Position numbers and translations under genes: made by a program. Shown here one piece after another: positions 47,176 to 55,211 of a DNA stretch of 64,000 bases. Within the stretch, counting starts at the first letter, position 1; each line of letters starts with the position of its first letter. Below the pieces are notes generated by a model. That model saw only the letters and a program-made list of their open reading frames with translations. It made no database searches and was not told the DNA's origin. Source of the stretch: a virus; the IMG/VR virus record IMGVR_UViG_3300037557_000128, positions 1 through 64,000 of that record. The stretch is one strand, 5' to 3'.

Positions 47176-47886
47176 CTATCTAATTGCGTTCCCTTTATCA
47201 TCTATATCAAATAAAAACTCATCGGGGTTATAGTTATCAGCTTCAAGACCTTTACAAAATATTGCATCATCGTTTAGATATTTTAAGGTACAATTAAAAG
47301 ATATACTATATCTCTCTTTGTTTGTTGGGTTGGGTTCTACCATGTGCATGAGACCACTTGGGAATAATATACACTCACCAGTATAGGGTTCAAAATATGA
47401 AGAAGTTGGTGTTCTAAGACTATGTGGAAAATCTGCAGCCACCTTTTGATGCGTATCAATCATTGATATACGACCCTCGTCACCGTCTCCATGAATATAG
47501 AATACACCACTATACCAACAACCATTATGTAAATGTGGTGCGTTCCAAGCACCATTATTGTTAATGTTTGCCCATGAATTGTTTATATCTAACTTACACT
47601 CTGAAGGTTTAAGTCCATGAAAAGGCATTACTTCGTCAATAAAAAATTGTTCTATTCTATTCATGCATTTCTGAAAAGTTGGGCTTCTTTCGCACCCATC
47701 TTTTGATTGCCAACCTGTATATTGATTAGAGAGTTGTCTTCCTTTTGGGTCTCTTCTTCTCATGGCGTCCATTTCGTTTCGCAACATTAGACAATATTCT
47801 TTTGAAAATCCCTTATCTTCAGGTAAGCCTTCTTGCGTGAAGTTCCTATGGAATACATAAGTTGGGAATAGTAATCTAACTGCCAT
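47176..47886 (-). CDS. 2OG-Fe(II) oxygenase, TIGR02466-like
   Basis: LFPT, SWANIN, HLH..WYSGVFY, FPS.L.H.V.PN....RYSISFN. Confidence 0.9.
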   Translation of the reverse strand: MAVRLLFPTYVFHRNFTQEGLPEDKGFSKEYCLMLRNEMDAMRRRDPKGRQLSNQYTGWQSKDGCERSPTFQKCMNRIEQFFIDEVMPFHGLKPSECKLDINNSWANINNNGAWNAPHLHNGCWYSGVFYIHGDGDEGRISMIDTHQKVAADFPHSLRTPTSSYFEPYTGECILFPSGLMHMVEPNPTNKERYSISFNCTLKYLNDDAIFCKGLEADNYNPDEFLFDIDDKGNAIR

Positions 47887-49168
47887 TTGGGTCTCTGTTG
47901 AACTTCCATACAGTTGTTTCTTCAACTTCTTTTAGAAATTCTATTGGAATATTGTGGTCTGATATAACCGTTCCTCTATCACTGATGTTTCCTACACCAT
48001 ACTCACTAATATAATATTTGTTGTCTTTTATAGACAAATTATTAGGATAAGCAACATTATACTTATCATGCAGATATATAGGGTACTCATTTTTATCACT
48101 ATCACTTGTAATTAAATACTTTCTACAATCTTTGTTTTCCCAAGCCTTTTCAAACAGTGATACATCTTCAAACATACCTTTTAGATATTCATCACCAGTC
48201 ATAAATGTAGGTGTACTATTAAATATATCAGGTCTTACATTCAGTTCTAAGAAATACCATTCTCCTTTAGAAGTGTAGGCACCACAAAAACTTCCTTCCC
48301 AACTTCCACCCATTTTAGCGATATGTTCTAAATATTTTTCAGACTCTTTTCTGACTATCTTATCTACGGAAGGACTTAATGGTTTCACATATGTGTCGAA
48401 ATACCATACTTGTGGGATTACACCTTTATTCAACCCCTCACCTATTATCTCTTGGGTATGAGTTATAGAATATTCTCCATTTGAAACTACAAAGAATACA
48501 TTTGTTTCTATCATATCATGCAAATATTCTTCTATGAAATAATCTGCATTTATACATCTCGGCCATTCAGGGTTGGTATTCAAATCTTTAAGGGGTTTTA
48601 TGTCTTCCTCACTATTAATCACTATTGCAGGATACCAAATATGAGAGGCTTTCTCTACACATGGAAAGGAAAGTCCCTCACAATAATCTTCATCTAAATA
48701 TTTTCCGTGTTTAACAATATTAGGAACCCTTACCCCAAGTTGCTTAGCTGTATCTTTTGCAAATAACTTGTCTGTTTCTAGACGACCTGATTTTTCTGTT
48801 GGGCCTATGTACTTAACTTTATCTTTAAAATAGGTATGTAAAAAAGATATATCAGGAATACAGACTTGAAGAATATCAATGTTGTACTTATCAATAAGTC
48901 CTTCTATAAATGCACATGATTCTATCTTTCTTTTTTCACTTATTTGAATGGGTATATCTTCCACTCTTTCTGGCGAATACTTACCAAGACCAGTTACCCT
49001 ACGATTTTCTTCTTCAGTTAAAGGGGTTATACCAAGAGAAGATTCGTATTCATTTACATACGTCCAATTACTGTAAACTGTATGGCCAGAATTTACTAAT
49101 TCTATCAAAGTATGAAAATGACAACGAGGAAGATTTAAATTTAGTATATTCACTCTTGTCCGTCCCAA
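47876..49168 (-). CDS. ATP-grasp ligase, PurD-like (divergent)
   Basis: IGPT....RLE.DK.FAK, FIEEYL, FLELNVRP. Confidence 0.75.
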   Translation of the reverse strand: MGRTRVNILNLNLPRCHFHTLIELVNSGHTVYSNWTYVNEYESSLGITPLTEEENRRVTGLGKYSPERVEDIPIQISEKRKIESCAFIEGLIDKYNIDILQVCIPDISFLHTYFKDKVKYIGPTEKSGRLETDKLFAKDTAKQLGVRVPNIVKHGKYLDEDYCEGLSFPCVEKASHIWYPAIVINSEEDIKPLKDLNTNPEWPRCINADYFIEEYLHDMIETNVFFVVSNGEYSITHTQEIIGEGLNKGVIPQVWYFDTYVKPLSPSVDKIVRKESEKYLEHIAKMGGSWEGSFCGAYTSKGEWYFLELNVRPDIFNSTPTFMTGDEYLKGMFEDVSLFEKAWENKDCRKYLITSDSDKNEYPIYLHDKYNVAYPNNLSIKDNKYYISEYGVGNISDRGTVISDHNIPIEFLKEVEETTVWKFNRDPNGS

Positions 49169-50061
49169 TTTAAATCCGTTCTTTTTAGTTGTTCTTCTTT
49201 AAAGTCTTTCTTCATTTCACCAGTATTAGGGTCAAAAGGACATTCTGTTAAATCTTCTTTGAAATCCTTATGTTTTGGTTCCCAAACTTTCCCTCTTTTA
49301 TAAGGGCCTGCCATATGAGTGGATTCATCTCCAAAACCTATCCTAGATAACTCAGTCACCGTCATACGTTTATCAGGGTGTTCTGTAGTGTATTTTGATT
49401 GATTAGTTACATAAGACTCATGGTCTTTAACAGTATATGTCGCAACCCATTCTTCTCTTTTGTATGGAATGATTTGACAAATAGGTGTACCCTTTGTTAT
49501 AACAAATGAATGGTCTACTTTGGGGTATAGAATAATTTGTGAATTGTCTTTATTTGTATTAAACTTATCAGTATCAATAATACCTTGCCATGTCGCAAAG
49601 TAATCATTCTGAAATAAGAAAGGGTCTAAGTAGAAACAAGAATAGCCTGGTGGTGTAGTTATACACCATGCATTAGACATTTTGAATGCATCTTTGACTG
49701 GTGCATCCATAGTAGACATATAGTTAAATGCATCATGCATTTGTATACTAGGGTGTGTTGCAGATGAATATTTCTCCATTTCAACATGGACTGTATCTTC
49801 AGTGTGATAAGATTTAGAATCAGAATCTTCATTTGTTACACCGTTTCTTATTAATATATCTCTATTTGCAAGAATAAGATACCCTGAAGATAACCAATCT
49901 TGCATTGCAGGACAAGACCTTATAGTCTTATTAACTACACCGTTTACAACTTCTGCGACCTTTCCTTTTTTCCACCAATCAGGTGTAACAGACTTTGCAA
50001 GAACTGGTTTAAAATTCTTTAAAGTTTCTTTATCGTATGTATGAAAGTCTATCATCGGCAT
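49150..50061 (-). CDS. hypothetical beta-rich protein of the type found in phage oxygenase clusters
   Basis: TIRSCPAMQDWLSSGY, W.I.TPPGYS, GIIDTD, KGTPICQIIP..RE.W. Confidence 0.7.
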   Translation of the reverse strand: MPMIDFHTYDKETLKNFKPVLAKSVTPDWWKKGKVAEVVNGVVNKTIRSCPAMQDWLSSGYLILANRDILIRNGVTNEDSDSKSYHTEDTVHVEMEKYSSATHPSIQMHDAFNYMSTMDAPVKDAFKMSNAWCITTPPGYSCFYLDPFLFQNDYFATWQGIIDTDKFNTNKDNSQIILYPKVDHSFVITKGTPICQIIPYKREEWVATYTVKDHESYVTNQSKYTTEHPDKRMTVTELSRIGFGDESTHMAGPYKRGKVWEPKHKDFKEDLTECPFDPNTGEMKKDFKEEQLKRTDLNWDGQE

Positions 50062-50740
50062 GATAATTTTCCCCCTCTTCTTCTAATCTGACCTCGTCTC
50101 CACGAACCACTAATGAACGTCTATCCATGTACCTCGAACTTGGGTCGGGTGCATCTGCACCATGTGGTATTCTTCCGTCAAACATAATAAGTCTATTTGG
50201 TTTAAAATCAATCTCACCTATTTGGTGATTCTTAATATGTTCATCTCTACCGTCTAAACCCTGTTGAGGTTTATCATATAATCTTAATGTTCCACCCCAC
50301 GCAGGATTCCAATATCTATTTGGGTAATATAGAAATGAAAGATTCCAACTGTCTTCTTCTGCACAATCTTGATGTGTAGTTCCCTGTAATCCTTGAGTCT
50401 GACTATTTAGGCCTGCGTATTGAAACCTTACCCATTTAAAACCAAACTCAGTTTGAAGTCTTCTATCTAAGTAATTTGTAAACCAAGTGTCTTCGATTCT
50501 GACATCTTTATCGATTTTATGAAAGTTTCTAAAAAATGTTGCACCCCAAAAACTATGGTGTGGTAAACCAGTTGAAGAACCACTACTGACTTGATTTGTC
50601 TTACTCCATATGTTATCAAGAGAGATTCTTTCATCATAATGATGATGTAATGGTTGAGCCAACCAATCATCTAATACATAAACTTTTGTTAAGGGTAAAG
50701 TCTGTATTTTGAAAGGTTCATCTAAATGAACAATCTCCAT
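50030..50740 (-). CDS. 2OG-Fe(II) oxygenase
   Basis: HQD, LYYPN..W...WGG, PNRL..FDGRIPH...R. Confidence 0.88.
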   Translation of the reverse strand: MEIVHLDEPFKIQTLPLTKVYVLDDWLAQPLHHHYDERISLDNIWSKTNQVSSGSSTGLPHHSFWGATFFRNFHKIDKDVRIEDTWFTNYLDRRLQTEFGFKWVRFQYAGLNSQTQGLQGTTHQDCAEEDSWNLSFLYYPNRYWNPAWGGTLRLYDKPQQGLDGRDEHIKNHQIGEIDFKPNRLIMFDGRIPHGADAPDPSSRYMDRRSLVVRGDEVRLEEEGENYHADDRLSYIR

Positions 50741-50741
50741 A

Positions 50742-51311
50742 CTAACTCTGTTGGTGGTCTGGCAGTTTAGTTGGTGCTGGTATATGCATTGAATACTCGT
50801 CCAATTCCTTTAAAGTATCTTCACGAGTTGCTTTAATTTCTGCACATATTTGGTCTAATACACTGTATAGTGCATCACCATATTCCATAACCCTTCTTGC
50901 ATTAGACCTAAATGGGTGGTTAGAACCCTCTCTACCTGCAAAAGTAACCTCACCTAAATCACTAAAACCATGCATATCAATAGTTTCTTTTAGATAATCT
51001 CCAACCTGTTCATTTAACCTTGACATAAGTTGATTGTTTAAATTAGTTCCCAAAGGTGGTTCTGAATTTGCAATATACTGTTCAACCATTTCTTTTTCTG
51101 CATCAGATAGGTCTAGTTTTTCTTGCATATCAAAATTTTGTTCTCTGTCCCACTTCATGATTTTGATTTCTATATCATCATACACCAACATATCATATTC
51201 AAACCCTAATTCAGGTTTGTCGACATTTTGAAATTCGTATTCCAATCCGTTAGGTTTTCTGACAAAGAGGTTGCTATCTTCCGTGAATATTAAAGCGTTT
51301 TTTACATTCAT
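50742..51311 (-). CDS. hypothetical protein, possible tail-fibre-assembly-like
   Basis: Position in cluster; acidic helical C-terminus; weak. Confidence 0.5.
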   Translation of the reverse strand: MNVKNALIFTEDSNLFVRKPNGLEYEFQNVDKPELGFEYDMLVYDDIEIKIMKWDREQNFDMQEKLDLSDAEKEMVEQYIANSEPPLGTNLNNQLMSRLNEQVGDYLKETIDMHGFSDLGEVTFAGREGSNHPFRSNARRVMEYGDALYSVLDQICAEIKATREDTLKELDEYSMHIPAPTKLPDHQQS

Positions 51312-51345
51312 AATAATTTTCCTATAATCTCTCTATTATACCATA

Positions 51346-52866
51346 TTATTGCGTGGAGTCATAGAGGTTTTTGTACTTGTTGTATACTTCAAGATTATTT
51401 ATAGAGTCAAAATTCATATCATTTATCCAAGGCCCGCCCCTAGTGTAATGAATCCCAGTGTAATCCCACTTCTCTTCAGGGTTGTCATAACCTTCGACAA
51501 ATATATATTTTTGAGGTATTTCAGATATTGCATTAGTCCATTCGAACTGATGTAGTTGTTTTCCTGTCCAAGTGTTCACAACTTCAGGTGTTAACTTCTT
51601 ACAGTCCTCATGACTGTTGTTGAAAAACATCATTGAAGACCACAATTTACATGGATAATCTATGTTTACTTCTCCATTGAACTTAGACTCGTCATGTTTA
51701 TATTGTGGGTATTTGATACACGCAACTGCATCATCAGGATTTAGATAATAGAACATAGGTAGTAATGACTTCTTAAATATAAAATCGTTATCCACAAATA
51801 GACTAAACCCTTCATAGTTCTCTAAGTGTGGTATAAGAAATCTACTGTATGTAAATTCAGTACTTTGATTTGCGTACTCCCTATTATAATCGGGAAGTTT
51901 AGAAATGTCAAGCAATTTAATGGTTGGACTAAATCTAGTGTACTCTTGAAACTCACCCAGTGAATGTGCATCTGAGATTGTTTGTGTGATTGACTTTTCA
52001 CACACTTTCTCTAAATCATTCATTGTACTATCATAACCGATATAAACGGTTAGTGGTTTACCTGCAGAAAGTTTATGAACCTTTTTATTAAACTTAAAGA
52101 CATCATCTCTAAATCCAAGTTCTGCTAAATCTGTTTGCCATTCTATCACACCCCGACATAGTTGGAATGCAATATTTTTATGTCTTCCTCTTTTGTCTAG
52201 TTTATCGCCCCAATACTCTAATACTTCATCAAGTGTTGTACTTGGAAAATCTGAGAGTTGTCCAGTCTTATCCCATATCATACACTCCATATCGTCATTT
52301 TCCATTTCTTCAAATACGCAAGAACGAACAGAGCCTGGGTGGATTGTTAATTGAATTAGGTCATCAACTGGATTTGTTGTATAACCTTGAATTGGTGCCC
52401 AAAGTCCTTCTTCTTGAATACTTTGAGTTAACCAGTGTGCTTTTGCACTATGGTAATAACAAGAACCTACTACTTCTTTTACTCTTGGGTCTTCTTTATG
52501 AGACGGTCTAACATTTACAACAGTATCTAAAATGTTAACTTCTTCATCTTCTTTTTGGAATCCGAATCCTGCGTGATTTCCCACCATGTTTAAACTAGAA
52601 TAACCATGAGGAAGATACCTATGATAATAATTAGACTTATCTAATAGACCATTAAAACTCATGAATCTTTTTTCTTTTCTTAATTGAAGTGTATCACCCC
52701 ATTTAAAGATTTTAAGTGGTGGAAGAATTTCTTCAAACAACCACTGTATGATTTTATATGATTCTTTATCTGTTTCACCAATATTAAGGGAACCTAAATG
52801 TAAGGCGTCCATAGTTTCTTTGGTGATAAGAGATTGAGCTTGCTCTAGTGTAGTAATTTTTTCCAT
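51346..52866 (-). CDS. fusion: ParB/Srx-like N-terminal domain plus C-terminal GT-A glycosyltransferase
   Basis: VYIGYD, STEFTYSRFLIP, DND (DxD), WSS, IHYT.GGPW; N-terminal part SIQEEGLWAPI...HPGSVR. Confidence 0.75.
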   Translation of the reverse strand: MEKITTLEQAQSLITKETMDALHLGSLNIGETDKESYKIIQWLFEEILPPLKIFKWGDTLQLRKEKRFMSFNGLLDKSNYYHRYLPHGYSSLNMVGNHAGFGFQKEDEEVNILDTVVNVRPSHKEDPRVKEVVGSCYYHSAKAHWLTQSIQEEGLWAPIQGYTTNPVDDLIQLTIHPGSVRSCVFEEMENDDMECMIWDKTGQLSDFPSTTLDEVLEYWGDKLDKRGRHKNIAFQLCRGVIEWQTDLAELGFRDDVFKFNKKVHKLSAGKPLTVYIGYDSTMNDLEKVCEKSITQTISDAHSLGEFQEYTRFSPTIKLLDISKLPDYNREYANQSTEFTYSRFLIPHLENYEGFSLFVDNDFIFKKSLLPMFYYLNPDDAVACIKYPQYKHDESKFNGEVNIDYPCKLWSSMMFFNNSHEDCKKLTPEVVNTWTGKQLHQFEWTNAISEIPQKYIFVEGYDNPEEKWDYTGIHYTRGGPWINDMNFDSINNLEVYNKYKNLYDSTQ

Positions 52867-52899: not shown

Positions 52900-53760
52900 T
52901 TAACTTGTAACTGGTGTAGCAGGCCATTGTTGAGATAGTGTACTATCCCACCTAATGACTGGTGTTCTACCTTGTCGGGCATAAGTTCCAGGCGTCCTAT
53001 GTTGATATGTGAACGGTGTCTGACCTTGTCTTGCATATGTGCCAGGCGTTCTATGTTGATAAGTCGTTGGTGTTTGACCTTGTCTAGCATATGTACTTGG
53101 TGTTCTATGTTGATAGGTAAATGGTGTTTGACCTTGTCTCGCATATGTGCCAGGCGTTCTATGTTGATATGTAGTAGGTGTTTGACCTTGTCTAGCATAT
53201 GTGCCAGGCTGTCTGTTTTGATATGTAGTAGGTGTCTGACCTTGTCTAGCATACGTTCCTGGCTGCCTATTACTATATGTAAATGGAGTCTGTCCTTGTC
53301 TCGCATATGTTGTAGGTTGACTAGCAATATATGGATATGGATTTTGTCTATTCGCAATATAAGGTTGTTGTCCAGCTACAGGATTCCTATAGGTAAATGG
53401 ACTCCTATTATTATATGTGAACGGACTCTGACTATTACTAGGTTGTCTTGCGTTCGCAGGATACCTTGCGTTATATGTGAATGGACTCTGACTATTACTA
53501 GGAGACTGTCCATTAGCAGGATACCTTGCGTTATATGTGAACGGTTGTCTCGCATTACTAGGAGACTGAGCATTCGCAGGATACCTTGCGTTATAGGTAT
53601 ACGGAGTCCTTGCGTTATAGGTAAATGGACTCTGACTATTACTAGGAGACTGTCCATTAGCAGGATACCTTGCGTTATAAGTTCCAGGCTGCCTAGCTGA
53701 AGCAATGGCAGGTTGCTGGGTATTAGCGATTACTGGTTGTTGTGCTTGTCCGATTGCCAT
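52900..53760 (-). CDS. Pro/Tyr/Gln/Arg repeat protein B
   Basis: Tandem units such as PGTYARQGQTPTTYQHRT; coupled by TAATG to the upstream gene. Confidence 0.85.
   Translation of the reverse strand: MAIGQAQQPVIANTQQPAIASARQPGTYNARYPANGQSPSNSQSPFTYNARTPYTYNARYPANAQSPSNARQPFTYNARYPANGQSPSNSQSPFTYNARYPANARQPSNSQSPFTYNNRSPFTYRNPVAGQQPYIANRQNPYPYIASQPTTYARQGQTPFTYSNRQPGTYARQGQTPTTYQNRQPGTYARQGQTPTTYQHRTPGTYARQGQTPFTYQHRTPSTYARQGQTPTTYQHRTPGTYARQGQTPFTYQHRTPGTYARQGRTPVIRWDSTLSQQWPATPVTS
52960..53720. repeat. coding tandem repeats (a 54-bp unit about 6 times, plus 18/24-bp modules)
   Basis: Recurring tgaccttgtc...gcatatgt and gcaggataccttgcgttata. Confidence 0.9.
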
Positions 53761-55211
53761 TATCTTTTATTCCCCCCGCCGTTATGAACTAACACACCTT
53801 CTGTAAAGTATGTTTTAGTGTGTTCAACGGAAGTTAAATGATAGACTGTAGCAGTTCCATTTTCTGTTATGGAGTTAACTGTTACCCCTGATTGACCAAC
53901 TGTAAAGACTTCGTCTCCTACTGCGAGTTCTCCACTTAGTTCTATTCCCCAATCAACGTCTTTTAACTCAATATCACACTCTTCCTGATTCGCATATTTC
54001 CAACCTGAATCAGTGTGTATTGGGTGTCCACCTGTTACACCTAGTGTTTTTCCATTTGATAATTCTACGTTCCAAACTTTTATGTTTTCTCTTGGAACCA
54101 TGACCTCAGTAACATTCTGAGGCATAAGTTTACCATGACTAAAGTCAAATGTCATTACTGCATCTCCAACATTAACGTTTTCTATGTTCATATGATTGTT
54201 ATCAGCCATCAAAATTTGTGTTCCAGCAATGAAACACCCACCACCACCGCCACCATACGGATAAGTGTATGGATTACGATATGCATACGAAACTGGTGTC
54301 CTCTGTTGAAAGGTAAATGGATTCTGACTGTTTGCTATATAAGGAACTCTGTATGTAAATGGGTTTCTATATGTTCCAGGCTGTCTTGCATTAGCAATGT
54401 ATGGTTGTCTTGCGTTTGCGATATAAGGAACCCTGTATGTAAATGGGTTTCTATATGTGAATGGATTTCTTGCATTAGCAATATAAGGAACCCTATATGT
54501 AAATGGGTTTCTGTATGTTCCAGGCTGTCTTGCGTTTGCGATATAAGGAACTCTGTATGTAAATGGGTGTCTGTATGTTCCAGGCTGTCTTGCGTTTGCG
54601 ATATAAGGTTGCTGTGCGCTTACAGGACTTCTATAGGTAAATGGATTCCTGTTTTGATATGTACTAGGTGTCTGACCTTGTCTTGCATATGTTGTAGGTT
54701 GACTAGCAATATACGGATAAGGTTGTTGTGCATTAGCAATATATGGTGTTTGATTGCTCGCAATATACGGATAAGGATTTTGTCTATTCGCAATATATGG
54801 AGTCTGATTACTTGCTATATACGGGTAAGGGTTTTGTCTATTCGCAATACTTGGGGTCTGATTGCTTGCTATATACGGGTAAGGTTGTTGAGCGTTCGCA
54901 ATACTTGGAGCTTGAGCATTTGCTATATAAGGGTACGGATTTTGTCTATTCGCAATACTTGGGGTCTGACTATTAGCAATGTATGGATAAGGTTGTTGTG
55001 CGTTCGCAATACTTGGAGTCTGACTATTAGCAATGTATGGATAAGGTTGTTGAACTGAAGTCTGACCCGAAGCGTTATTCCAAGTGGAAGGCCCAGTCTT
55101 TACATAAACCTGTTCTGCAGCTTTCCAAGTCGTTCCACCCGTCTTTACCCACGCACCTTGTGTGGCATTCCAACCTGTAGGTGTTTTGACGTGTTGTTTT
55201 CCTGTTGCCAT
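53760..55211 (-). CDS. repeat adhesin-like protein A with a C-terminal Hint domain
   Basis: Trp/Lys fibre-tip motif, then QPYPYIAN repeats, then G6-CFIAGT...TGGHP...LVHN-GGGNKR. Confidence 0.88.
   Translation of the reverse strand: MATGKQHVKTPTGWNATQGAWVKTGGTTWKAAEQVYVKTGPSTWNNASGQTSVQQPYPYIANSQTPSIANAQQPYPYIANSQTPSIANRQNPYPYIANAQAPSIANAQQPYPYIASNQTPSIANRQNPYPYIASNQTPYIANRQNPYPYIASNQTPYIANAQQPYPYIASQPTTYARQGQTPSTYQNRNPFTYRSPVSAQQPYIANARQPGTYRHPFTYRVPYIANARQPGTYRNPFTYRVPYIANARNPFTYRNPFTYRVPYIANARQPYIANARQPGTYRNPFTYRVPYIANSQNPFTFQQRTPVSYAYRNPYTYPYGGGGGGCFIAGTQILMADNNHMNIENVNVGDAVMTFDFSHGKLMPQNVTEVMVPRENIKVWNVELSNGKTLGVTGGHPIHTDSGWKYANQEECDIELKDVDWGIELSGELAVGDEVFTVGQSGVTVNSITENGTATVYHLTSVEHTKTYFTEGVLVHNGGGNKR
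53781..54236 (-). other. Hint (intein-like) autoprocessing domain
   Basis: Cys1 (CFIAGT), block B TxxH, terminal HN; no homing endonuclease; C+1 residue is Gly. Confidence 0.9.
54270..55055. repeat. coding tandem repeats of protein A
   Basis: Recurring gcgtttgcgatataagg and ttcgcaatacttgg. Confidence 0.9.

Follow-up and report, generated by a model that had tools for sequence, protein, structure and literature searches.

A putative autoprocessing Hint domain with presence/absence polymorphism near the C-terminus of a phage fibre-region protein

The DNA analysed here (hereafter the window) comprises 64,000 nucleotides, positions 1 to 64,000 of the IMG/VR virus record IMGVR_UViG_3300037557_000128, and is part of a 79-kb record. 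The source is a T4-like marine myovirus, with a tail sheath 47-49% identical to those of the Pelagibacter phages Mosig and HTVC008M and the Methylophilales phage Melnitz. Our subject is a Hint domain lodged six residues before the end of a repeat protein of the fibre region, protein A, which is followed by Gly rather than by the Cys, Ser or Thr that canonical inteins have at the first position after the domain (C+1). The domain resembles type A bacterial intein-like (BIL) domains, and it is present in some orthologs of protein A and absent from others at one and the same site. The features of the locus are listed below.

53760..55211, minus strand: gene A (open reading frame and translation), 483 amino acids, with a conserved head, Pro/Tyr/Asn repeats, a Gly run, the Hint domain and a 6-residue tail
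55062..55211, minus strand: N-terminal head of protein A, ~50 amino acids with three VKT..GW-type motifs, the best-conserved part of A
54255..55061, minus strand: variable Pro/Tyr/Asn/Gln repeat region of A (PYPYIAN.., NPFTYRVPYIANARQPGTY), about 270 residues in translation
54237..54254, minus strand: run of six glycines (residues 320-325), the N-flank of the Hint domain, with Gly at position -1
53781..54236, minus strand: Hint domain, residues 326-477 (152 amino acids), type A BIL/PT-HINT-like, with no endonuclease insert
54234..54236, minus strand: Cys326, first residue of the Hint domain (codon read) and predicted thioester nucleophile by analogy with established intein and BIL chemistry
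54024..54035, minus strand: block B motif T393-G-G-H396 (codons read)
53781..53786, minus strand: C-terminal His-Asn, H476-N477 (codons read), the Asn being predicted to cyclise and cut the C-junction
53763..53780, minus strand: C-extein GGGNKR (residues 478-483), apparently homologous to the C-terminal tail of Hint-less orthologs
53760-53762, minus strand: stop codon of gene A (codon read)
52900..53760, minus strand: gene B, encoding an A-paralogous repeat protein without a Hint domain, with a start that overlaps the stop of A (TAATG)

Protein A reads, in translation, ...YTYPY-GGGGGG-C326 FIAGT ... T393 GG H396 P ... V H476 N477-GGGNKR-stop. Translation and codons thus bear out the layout given in a preliminary description made from the DNA letters, namely a Hint domain with Cys1, TxxH and a terminal His-Asn, flanked by poly-Gly and followed by Gly at C+1, with the poly-Gly, the domain, the tail and the stop occupying 53760-54256.

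The assignment of this region to the Hint fold is clearly above chance. In Pfam, the domain matches Vint at 30.3 bits (cut-off 27) as well as Hom_end_hint, Hint, Intein_splicing and the pretoxin HINT family PT-HINT (PF07591); the PT-HINT alignment spans the whole profile, positions 8-136 of 137, but at 23.2 bits falls under the Pfam cut-off of 27.7. A phmmer search of the PDB retrieved Tetrahymena BIL2 at E 2.6e-4 over the full domain, and by sequence this BIL2, from the BUBL1 locus, and the Hint domain of a protein of umbrella-toxin type (8W20) are the best solved relatives. The AlphaFold2 model of residues 306-483 has a pLDDT of 89.7 and a pTM of 0.85, and Foldseek ranks as its nearest structures BIL2 (6Y75/6TMM; E 8e-10), a DnaB mini-intein, the C. 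thermocellum BIL domain (2LWY; E 6.5e-9) and other mini-inteins, with Hedgehog lower. Within the Hint fold, the best explanation of these data appears to be a type A BIL-like autoprocessing domain of the pretoxin-HINT clade: the domain carries Cys1 and TxxH, ends in His-Asn, has a C+1 residue other than Cys, Ser or Thr, is free of a homing-endonuclease insert (151-162 amino acids among the phage domains) and resides in a variable host protein.

The lack of a C+1 nucleophile, which the preliminary description treated as unusual, is no anomaly, judging from the relatives of the domain; it is a defining feature of BIL domains, which have no +1 nucleophile and mostly cleave (PMC4031507; PMC7664689), and the rule in this particular subfamily. 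An exhaustive HMMER search with the Hint domain yielded 4775 cluster representatives at E <= 1e-3, and the junctions were mapped for the domains of the best 150 proteins and of the close homologs; 238 of these domains lie outside the phage-A family. Among these 238 domains, the C+1 residue is Lys in 147 (62%) and Arg in 21, and Cys, Ser or Thr together account for only 21 (9%), while 230 terminate in His-Asn. The residue before Cys1 is usually Gly or Ser, flanks of poly-Gly occur frequently, and the TxxH motif is retained in nearly all of the 262 domains that were aligned. More distant homologs carry PF07591, and one of them is named a polymorphic toxin-type HINT protein. The true BUBL architecture, with ubiquitin-like domains that end in Gly followed by a Hint domain, was found only in one distant homolog, a foraminifer protein (P0096).

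Many of these relatives are arranged in tandem. The next Hint domain starts at most 6 residues on in 86 of the 238 domains, and the arrays reach seven or eight copies. The proteins P0035, P0039, P0042, P0044 and P0050 contain such arrays, of up to 7-8 complete Hint domains with spacers of 1-5 residues (..VHN-K-GG-C..), and one array protein, of 4119 amino acids from Mucilaginibacter, bears the NCBI name 'Hint domain-containing homing endonuclease'. If all copies were active, a tandem array would cut itself into free Hint monomers.

Within the phage-A family, the catalytic residues and Gly-1 are conserved without exception. The preliminary description proposed a survey of flanking residues in homologs. 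Among 28 unique phage-A Hint variants, Cys1, the terminal His-Asn and Gly at -1 are each present in 28, with identities down to about 36-45%, and the C+1 residue is Gly in the clade of the window, M, F, Y, I, R or L in more distant orthologs, and never Cys, Ser or Thr. The close homologs (Hint domains 68-84% identical) all possess poly-Gly, Cys1, TGGHP, VHN-Gly and a tail of 5-6 residues with Lys next to last, and in 25 of the 28 variants the tail is 4-7 residues long with Lys last or second to last. The ratio of nonsynonymous to synonymous substitution rates (dN/dS) is 0.13-0.25 over the whole domain in the clade of the window. From these sequence comparisons, the whole Hint domain, together with the chemistry of both junctions, is under purifying selection.

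Such conservation bears on the idea that the Hint domain has ceased to cut and now simply forms a globular domain at the distal end of the fibre. A folded C-terminal end is evidently tolerated in this protein, given that some A orthologs bear an unrelated globular C-terminal domain. However, the catalytic residues and Gly-1 are invariant throughout the 28 variants, and the orthologs with the globular domain are devoid of gene B, whereas those with the Hint domain keep gene B like the Hint-less class that ends in a short tail. A non-processing remnant is therefore very improbable.

The Lys and Gly codons of the tail were also considered as the sole product of a ribosome-binding site for gene B. 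The start of gene B lies -1 to +51 nucleotides from the A stop, depending on the lineage, and the tail Lys is kept where B begins 10-18 nucleotides downstream with a Shine-Dalgarno site of its own; this explanation was rejected because tails with Lys are still present in lineages that have a distinct GGAG/GAGG site after the A stop.

The orthologs of protein A put the Hint domain in an evolutionary context. When an ortholog of 45% identity was used to scan viral contigs, 79 IMG/VR loci with the same head and repeats were recovered, located directly downstream of a tail-fibre gene. The head is 66-93% identical across all ortholog classes, and the repeat region differs in length even among close homologs. 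The N-terminal part of A matches no family in Pfam, PHROGs or NCBIfam and only uncharacterised viral clusters in the protein atlas, and so the label 'adhesin' attached to it in the preliminary description is conjectural. A tblastn search with the whole of protein A against 50,697 phage records gave no match at E <= 1e-5, that is, no cultured phage in that set carries A, and a search of the literature for Hint or BIL domains in phage fibre or virion proteins turned up only terminase and helicase inteins.

The C-termini of these orthologs fall into three classes: the Hint domain with a short tail; a Hint-less Gly-rich stretch with a short tail, either of the Lys type (..GHQQK, ..PQIK, ..GGEKE) or of the ..EEP type; and an unrelated globular domain. 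The globular domain (ending in ..SLALF, ..SLAIL or ..FIK) replaces the Gly-rich tail at loci L061-L064, L068, L071-L082, L084, L086 and L087. Gene B always follows A in the first two classes and is missing in the third, and a glycosyltransferase-like gene of ~500 codons follows A in all three; the gene order is fibre gene, A, B and glycosyltransferase-like gene whether the Hint domain is present or absent. From this distribution, A plus B may be the split equivalent of one longer fibre protein. The repeats of B vary freely, and its C-terminal motif, ..P.(I/P/A)RWD....QQWP.TP..S, for which a family search found no match, is highly conserved in all lineages and is probably a docking or tip element.

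Comparison of the Hint-bearing and Hint-less proteins locates the insertion site. At locus L021, the sequence ..PGGGSPGLPTGHG|Hint|MQKR corresponds to ..PGGGSPGHQQK of the Hint-less L059; ..GGGRGGG|Hint|RQQK of L015 corresponds to ..SGGGPGHQQK of L026; and ..IPGGGGG|Hint|GEKK of L014 corresponds to ..GQPPGGEKE of L028. Because the two forms of A match on both flanks of the Hint domain, and this two-sided match recurs in three lineages, the C-extein is best read from the sequences as the ancestral C-terminal tail and the Hint domain as an optional insertion, placed four to six residues short of A's natural end.

The distribution of the insert is patchy. The tree of the neighbouring glycosyltransferase-like protein, used as a marker, gives five changes among the rows labelled Hint, with the Hint-bearing L027 and L069 adding a sixth lineage, and some Hint-bearing rows are sisters of Hint-less ones. 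In a tree of 264 Hint domains, those of phage A form three supported subclades that are not split by other sequences in the binary tree, with weak support (35) for their union. These subclades do not respect the deepest split of the marker tree: they join L014 with L065 (98) and L016 with L015, L021 and L091 (95), while the head and N-flank of L014 are nearest to those of the Hint-less L025 and L026. Together, these relationships suggest that the Hint domain was lost repeatedly, that phages exchanged the 3' part of the gene, or that both occurred. Outside the phage family, P0163, a metagenomic protein of 331 amino acids, has an N-terminal domain that is free of repeats and quite different from that of A, yet ends in GGGGGG|Hint|LEQQKR, with flanks in the style of the phage family; searched against viral contigs, it gave weak partial matches only. 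The same type of cassette, a Hint domain plus tail, may accordingly reside on other host proteins.

The sequences themselves show the domain, its motifs and how these are conserved, the presence/absence polymorphism at one site and the purifying selection. Every chemical step of the processing of protein A, as well as the ratio of ligation to hydrolysis, we infer from established intein and BIL chemistry. Cys326 would attack the carbonyl of Gly325 to form a Gly-thioester through an N-S acyl shift assisted by T393 and H396, and Asn477, assisted by His476, would cyclise and free the hexapeptide GGGNKR; through these two junction steps, the Hint domain would leave protein A. A junction with Gly on both sides offers the least hindrance, and succinimide forms most readily at Asn-Gly. 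The thioester could then be resolved in three ways. Attack by the alpha-amine of Gly478 would be a nucleophile-free ligation, after which mature A would end in ...GGGGGG-GGGNKR, with the junction peptide ...GGGGGGGGGNKR; if water came first, mature A would end in ...GGGGGG; and resolution by a lysine would be a less likely third route. In the part of PMC4031507 that cites Dassa 2004 and Aranko 2013, type A BIL domains with His-Asn are described as ligating their flanks by just this sequence of thioester formation, Asn cyclisation and attack of the freed alpha-amine. We put the probability that the Hint domain excises itself by thioester and Asn-cyclisation chemistry at roughly 0.6.

Ligation as the main outcome is a more tentative proposition, with rather less than an even chance. 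We take ligation to be the selected product because the ligated form would recreate the end of the Hint-less orthologs, a Gly-rich stretch plus a short tail, and we favour it because Hint-bearing proteins have retained both the Asn and a tail resembling the C-terminus of the Hint-less proteins, and because the insert could otherwise be lost through simple truncation. The retention of the Asn and of a tail of 4-7 residues in lineages this old fits a need to cut the C-junction while preserving the tail. The preliminary description had listed ligation to GGGNKR as one of several possible fates; the published type A BIL route and the fact that the product would recreate the Hint-less C-terminus speak for this part of it, and its novelty as a mechanism falls away.

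Several observations weigh against this interpretation. The tail matches between Hint-bearing and Hint-less proteins are only 3-5 residues long, and the supports of the marker and Hint trees are FastTree local SH-like values only. The Gly|Gly junction is not general, with M, F, Y, I, R or L at +1 in the distant orthologs. Among the products of characterised BIL domains, cleavage dominates over ligation (PMC7664689). A nonsense mutation could drop an insert so near the C-terminus if it were purely parasitic, so that its long retention may reflect a positive function. Finally, tails are at most 7 residues long in 27 of the 238 domains of the wider subfamily, and some consist of only 0-2 residues after His-Asn; in those cases, there is no meaningful tail whose ligation could be the purpose.

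A first alternative is that N-terminal cleavage is the sole selected event, as in Hedgehog or pretoxin HINT proteins, the Hint domain acting transiently, for instance as a solubility cap or assembly chaperone, for the aggregation-prone repeats and the tail a by-product. Phage fibres commonly bear self-cleaving C-terminal chaperone domains, and C-terminal Hint domains with tails of 0-2 residues do occur in the wider family. PT-HINT domains have been read as releasing peptidases (PMC3482391), and BIL domains yield mainly cleaved products (PMC7664689). However, 25 of the 28 variants retain the terminal Asn and the tail of 4-7 residues, neither of which is required for N-cleavage; the tail matches the natural end of the Hint-less orthologs; and those orthologs do without any such cap. 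Overall, we consider release alone plausible but unlikely.

Another alternative turns the Hint domain into a conjugation module, in which the Gly-thioester would be resolved by a Lys side chain, from the tail, from protein B or from another virion protein, to give an isopeptide; the domain would then be an ATP-free, single-use ligase that fixes the fibre. The closest solved structure is BIL2, and in the part of PMC8616854 that cites Chiarini 2021, BIL2 is described as linking a Lys epsilon-amine to the C-terminus by an isopeptide bond, with conjugation of its N-flank to other proteins. The N-flank of the phage domain ends in Gly-Gly, as in donors of the ubiquitin type, almost every tail has Lys in the last or the penultimate position, and Lys is the commonest C+1 residue of the wider family (62%). 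On the other side, many A orthologs with the same gene B and the same neighbours possess no Hint domain, so that attachment through a thioester cannot be needed for the basic role of A; tails that end in Lys also occur in Hint-less orthologs, where there is no thioester to accept; and the evidence assembled here includes no candidate acceptor. Conjugation is quite improbable, and the further suggestions of the preliminary description, that the adhesin-like part would be transferred to another virion protein, to a small molecule made by the adjacent cassette or to a host amine, find no support, the many Hint-less orthologs arguing against an essential conjugation. Also distinctly unlikely is a broader proposal that the Hint domain is either an efficient nucleophile-free Gly-Gly splicer that moves between alleles of the fibre region without an endonuclease, or a maker of isopeptides to the tail Lys or to a partner virion protein.

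Self-excision, with Gly-Gly ligation as the favoured product, remains our preferred reading. The kind of domain and the missing C+1 nucleophile are known; what is new is the setting in a phage fibre region and the intein-like presence/absence polymorphism near the C-terminus. As usually described, BIL domains are static elements in variable surface or toxin proteins of bacteria, and their purpose is unclear. Insert-free alleles, patchy distribution and purifying selection provide a natural comparison, with and without the domain, for splicing in vivo by a Hint domain that has no C+1 nucleophile. If Gly|Gly ligation is efficient, the domain would be a compact natural means (152 amino acids) of joining proteins almost without a trace; should it be inefficient, the locus would be a clean system in which to ask what keeps a removable self-cleaving domain in place. 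Known Hint chemistry would be unchanged in either case. The formation of isopeptides, if true, would mark the first case of covalent, thioester-based assembly in a phage fibre.

The remaining features of the locus concern gene B and the genes beyond it. A programmed frameshift from A into B was considered and rejected: nine bases before the ATG of B, a TAA interrupts the B frame, and no slippery heptamer lies in the codons at the end of A. The TAATG overlap reflects ordinary translational coupling. No inverted DNA repeats of at least 30 nucleotides were found between genes A and B. Opposite the repeat regions of B and A lie the antisense open frames 52972-53700 (plus strand, 242 amino acids) and 54135-55058 (plus strand, 307 amino acids), most likely a by-product of the biased codons of the repeats. 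Directly downstream of A and B, the region 47176-52866 (minus strand; for example, 51346-52866 and 50030-50740) encodes a 506-amino-acid protein with a weak match to glycosyltransferase family 8 and a 2OG-Fe(II) oxygenase of the prolyl-hydroxylase type. The 506-amino-acid glycosyltransferase-like gene is kept in all ~80 related loci, including those with the globular C-domain of A and no gene B. That the Pro-rich repeat proteins A and B could be targets of hydroxylation or glycosylation by the neighbouring enzymes is an obvious idea.

Among known systems, the nearest are the type A BIL domains, reportedly the subject of work by Amitai in 2003 and Dassa in 2004. They share with the Hint domain of A a size of ~150 amino acids with no endonuclease, Cys1, TxxH and His-Asn, the lack of Cys, Ser or Thr at C+1 and a variable, non-essential-looking host protein; the structural match to C. 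thermocellum BIL4 (2LWY) has a TM-score of 0.86 at a Foldseek E of 6.5e-9, and the published mechanism fits every conserved residue of the phage domain (PMC4031507). Unlike these domains, the Hint domain of A resides in a protein of the structural region of a phage, has a C-extein of only 4-7 residues, is flanked by Gly on both sides in the clade of the window, and displays a one-site presence/absence polymorphism of the kind that is usual for inteins and not for BIL domains. BIL2 of Tetrahymena thermophila BUBL1 (PDB 6TMM, 6Y75) is alike in structure (TM-score 0.80-0.83), in the Gly-Gly end of the N-flank and in the lack of a C+1 nucleophile. However, it lies between ubiquitin-like domains, whereas the phage domain lies between a Pro/Tyr repeat protein and a hexapeptide, and the sequence identity is ~21%.

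Pretoxin HINT domains (PF07591) likewise reside near the C-terminus of filamentous or repeat proteins. Apart from a score under the Pfam cut-off, the Hint domain of A differs from them in being followed by only the six residues GGGNKR, with no toxin domain, in the lack of an immunity gene and in its location among phage virion genes rather than those of a secretion system. Mini-inteins (Ssp DnaB, gp41-1, Npu DnaE) have in common with it the fold, Cys1, TxxH and His-Asn, a patchy distribution and insertion at one site, with insert-free alleles of the host gene in which the flanks are contiguous. In contrast to class 1 inteins, the domain has Gly478 at C+1, and Cys, Ser or Thr occupies this position in 0 of 28 variants, so that the route through a branched intermediate is impossible; there is no homing endonuclease, and the domain is inserted not at a conserved catalytic site but in a Gly-rich tail, with a few residues left before the C-terminus. 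The Hog domain of Hedgehog, also a C-terminal Hint domain, activates the last residue of the N-terminal part as a Gly-Cys thioester and is found by Foldseek at E about 1e-5 (1AT0, 6TYY), structurally less similar to the phage domain than the BIL domains and inteins are. Hog has a sterol-recognition region and no terminal His-Asn, whereas in protein A the His-Asn is invariant, lies six residues before the stop and is accompanied by no additional region.

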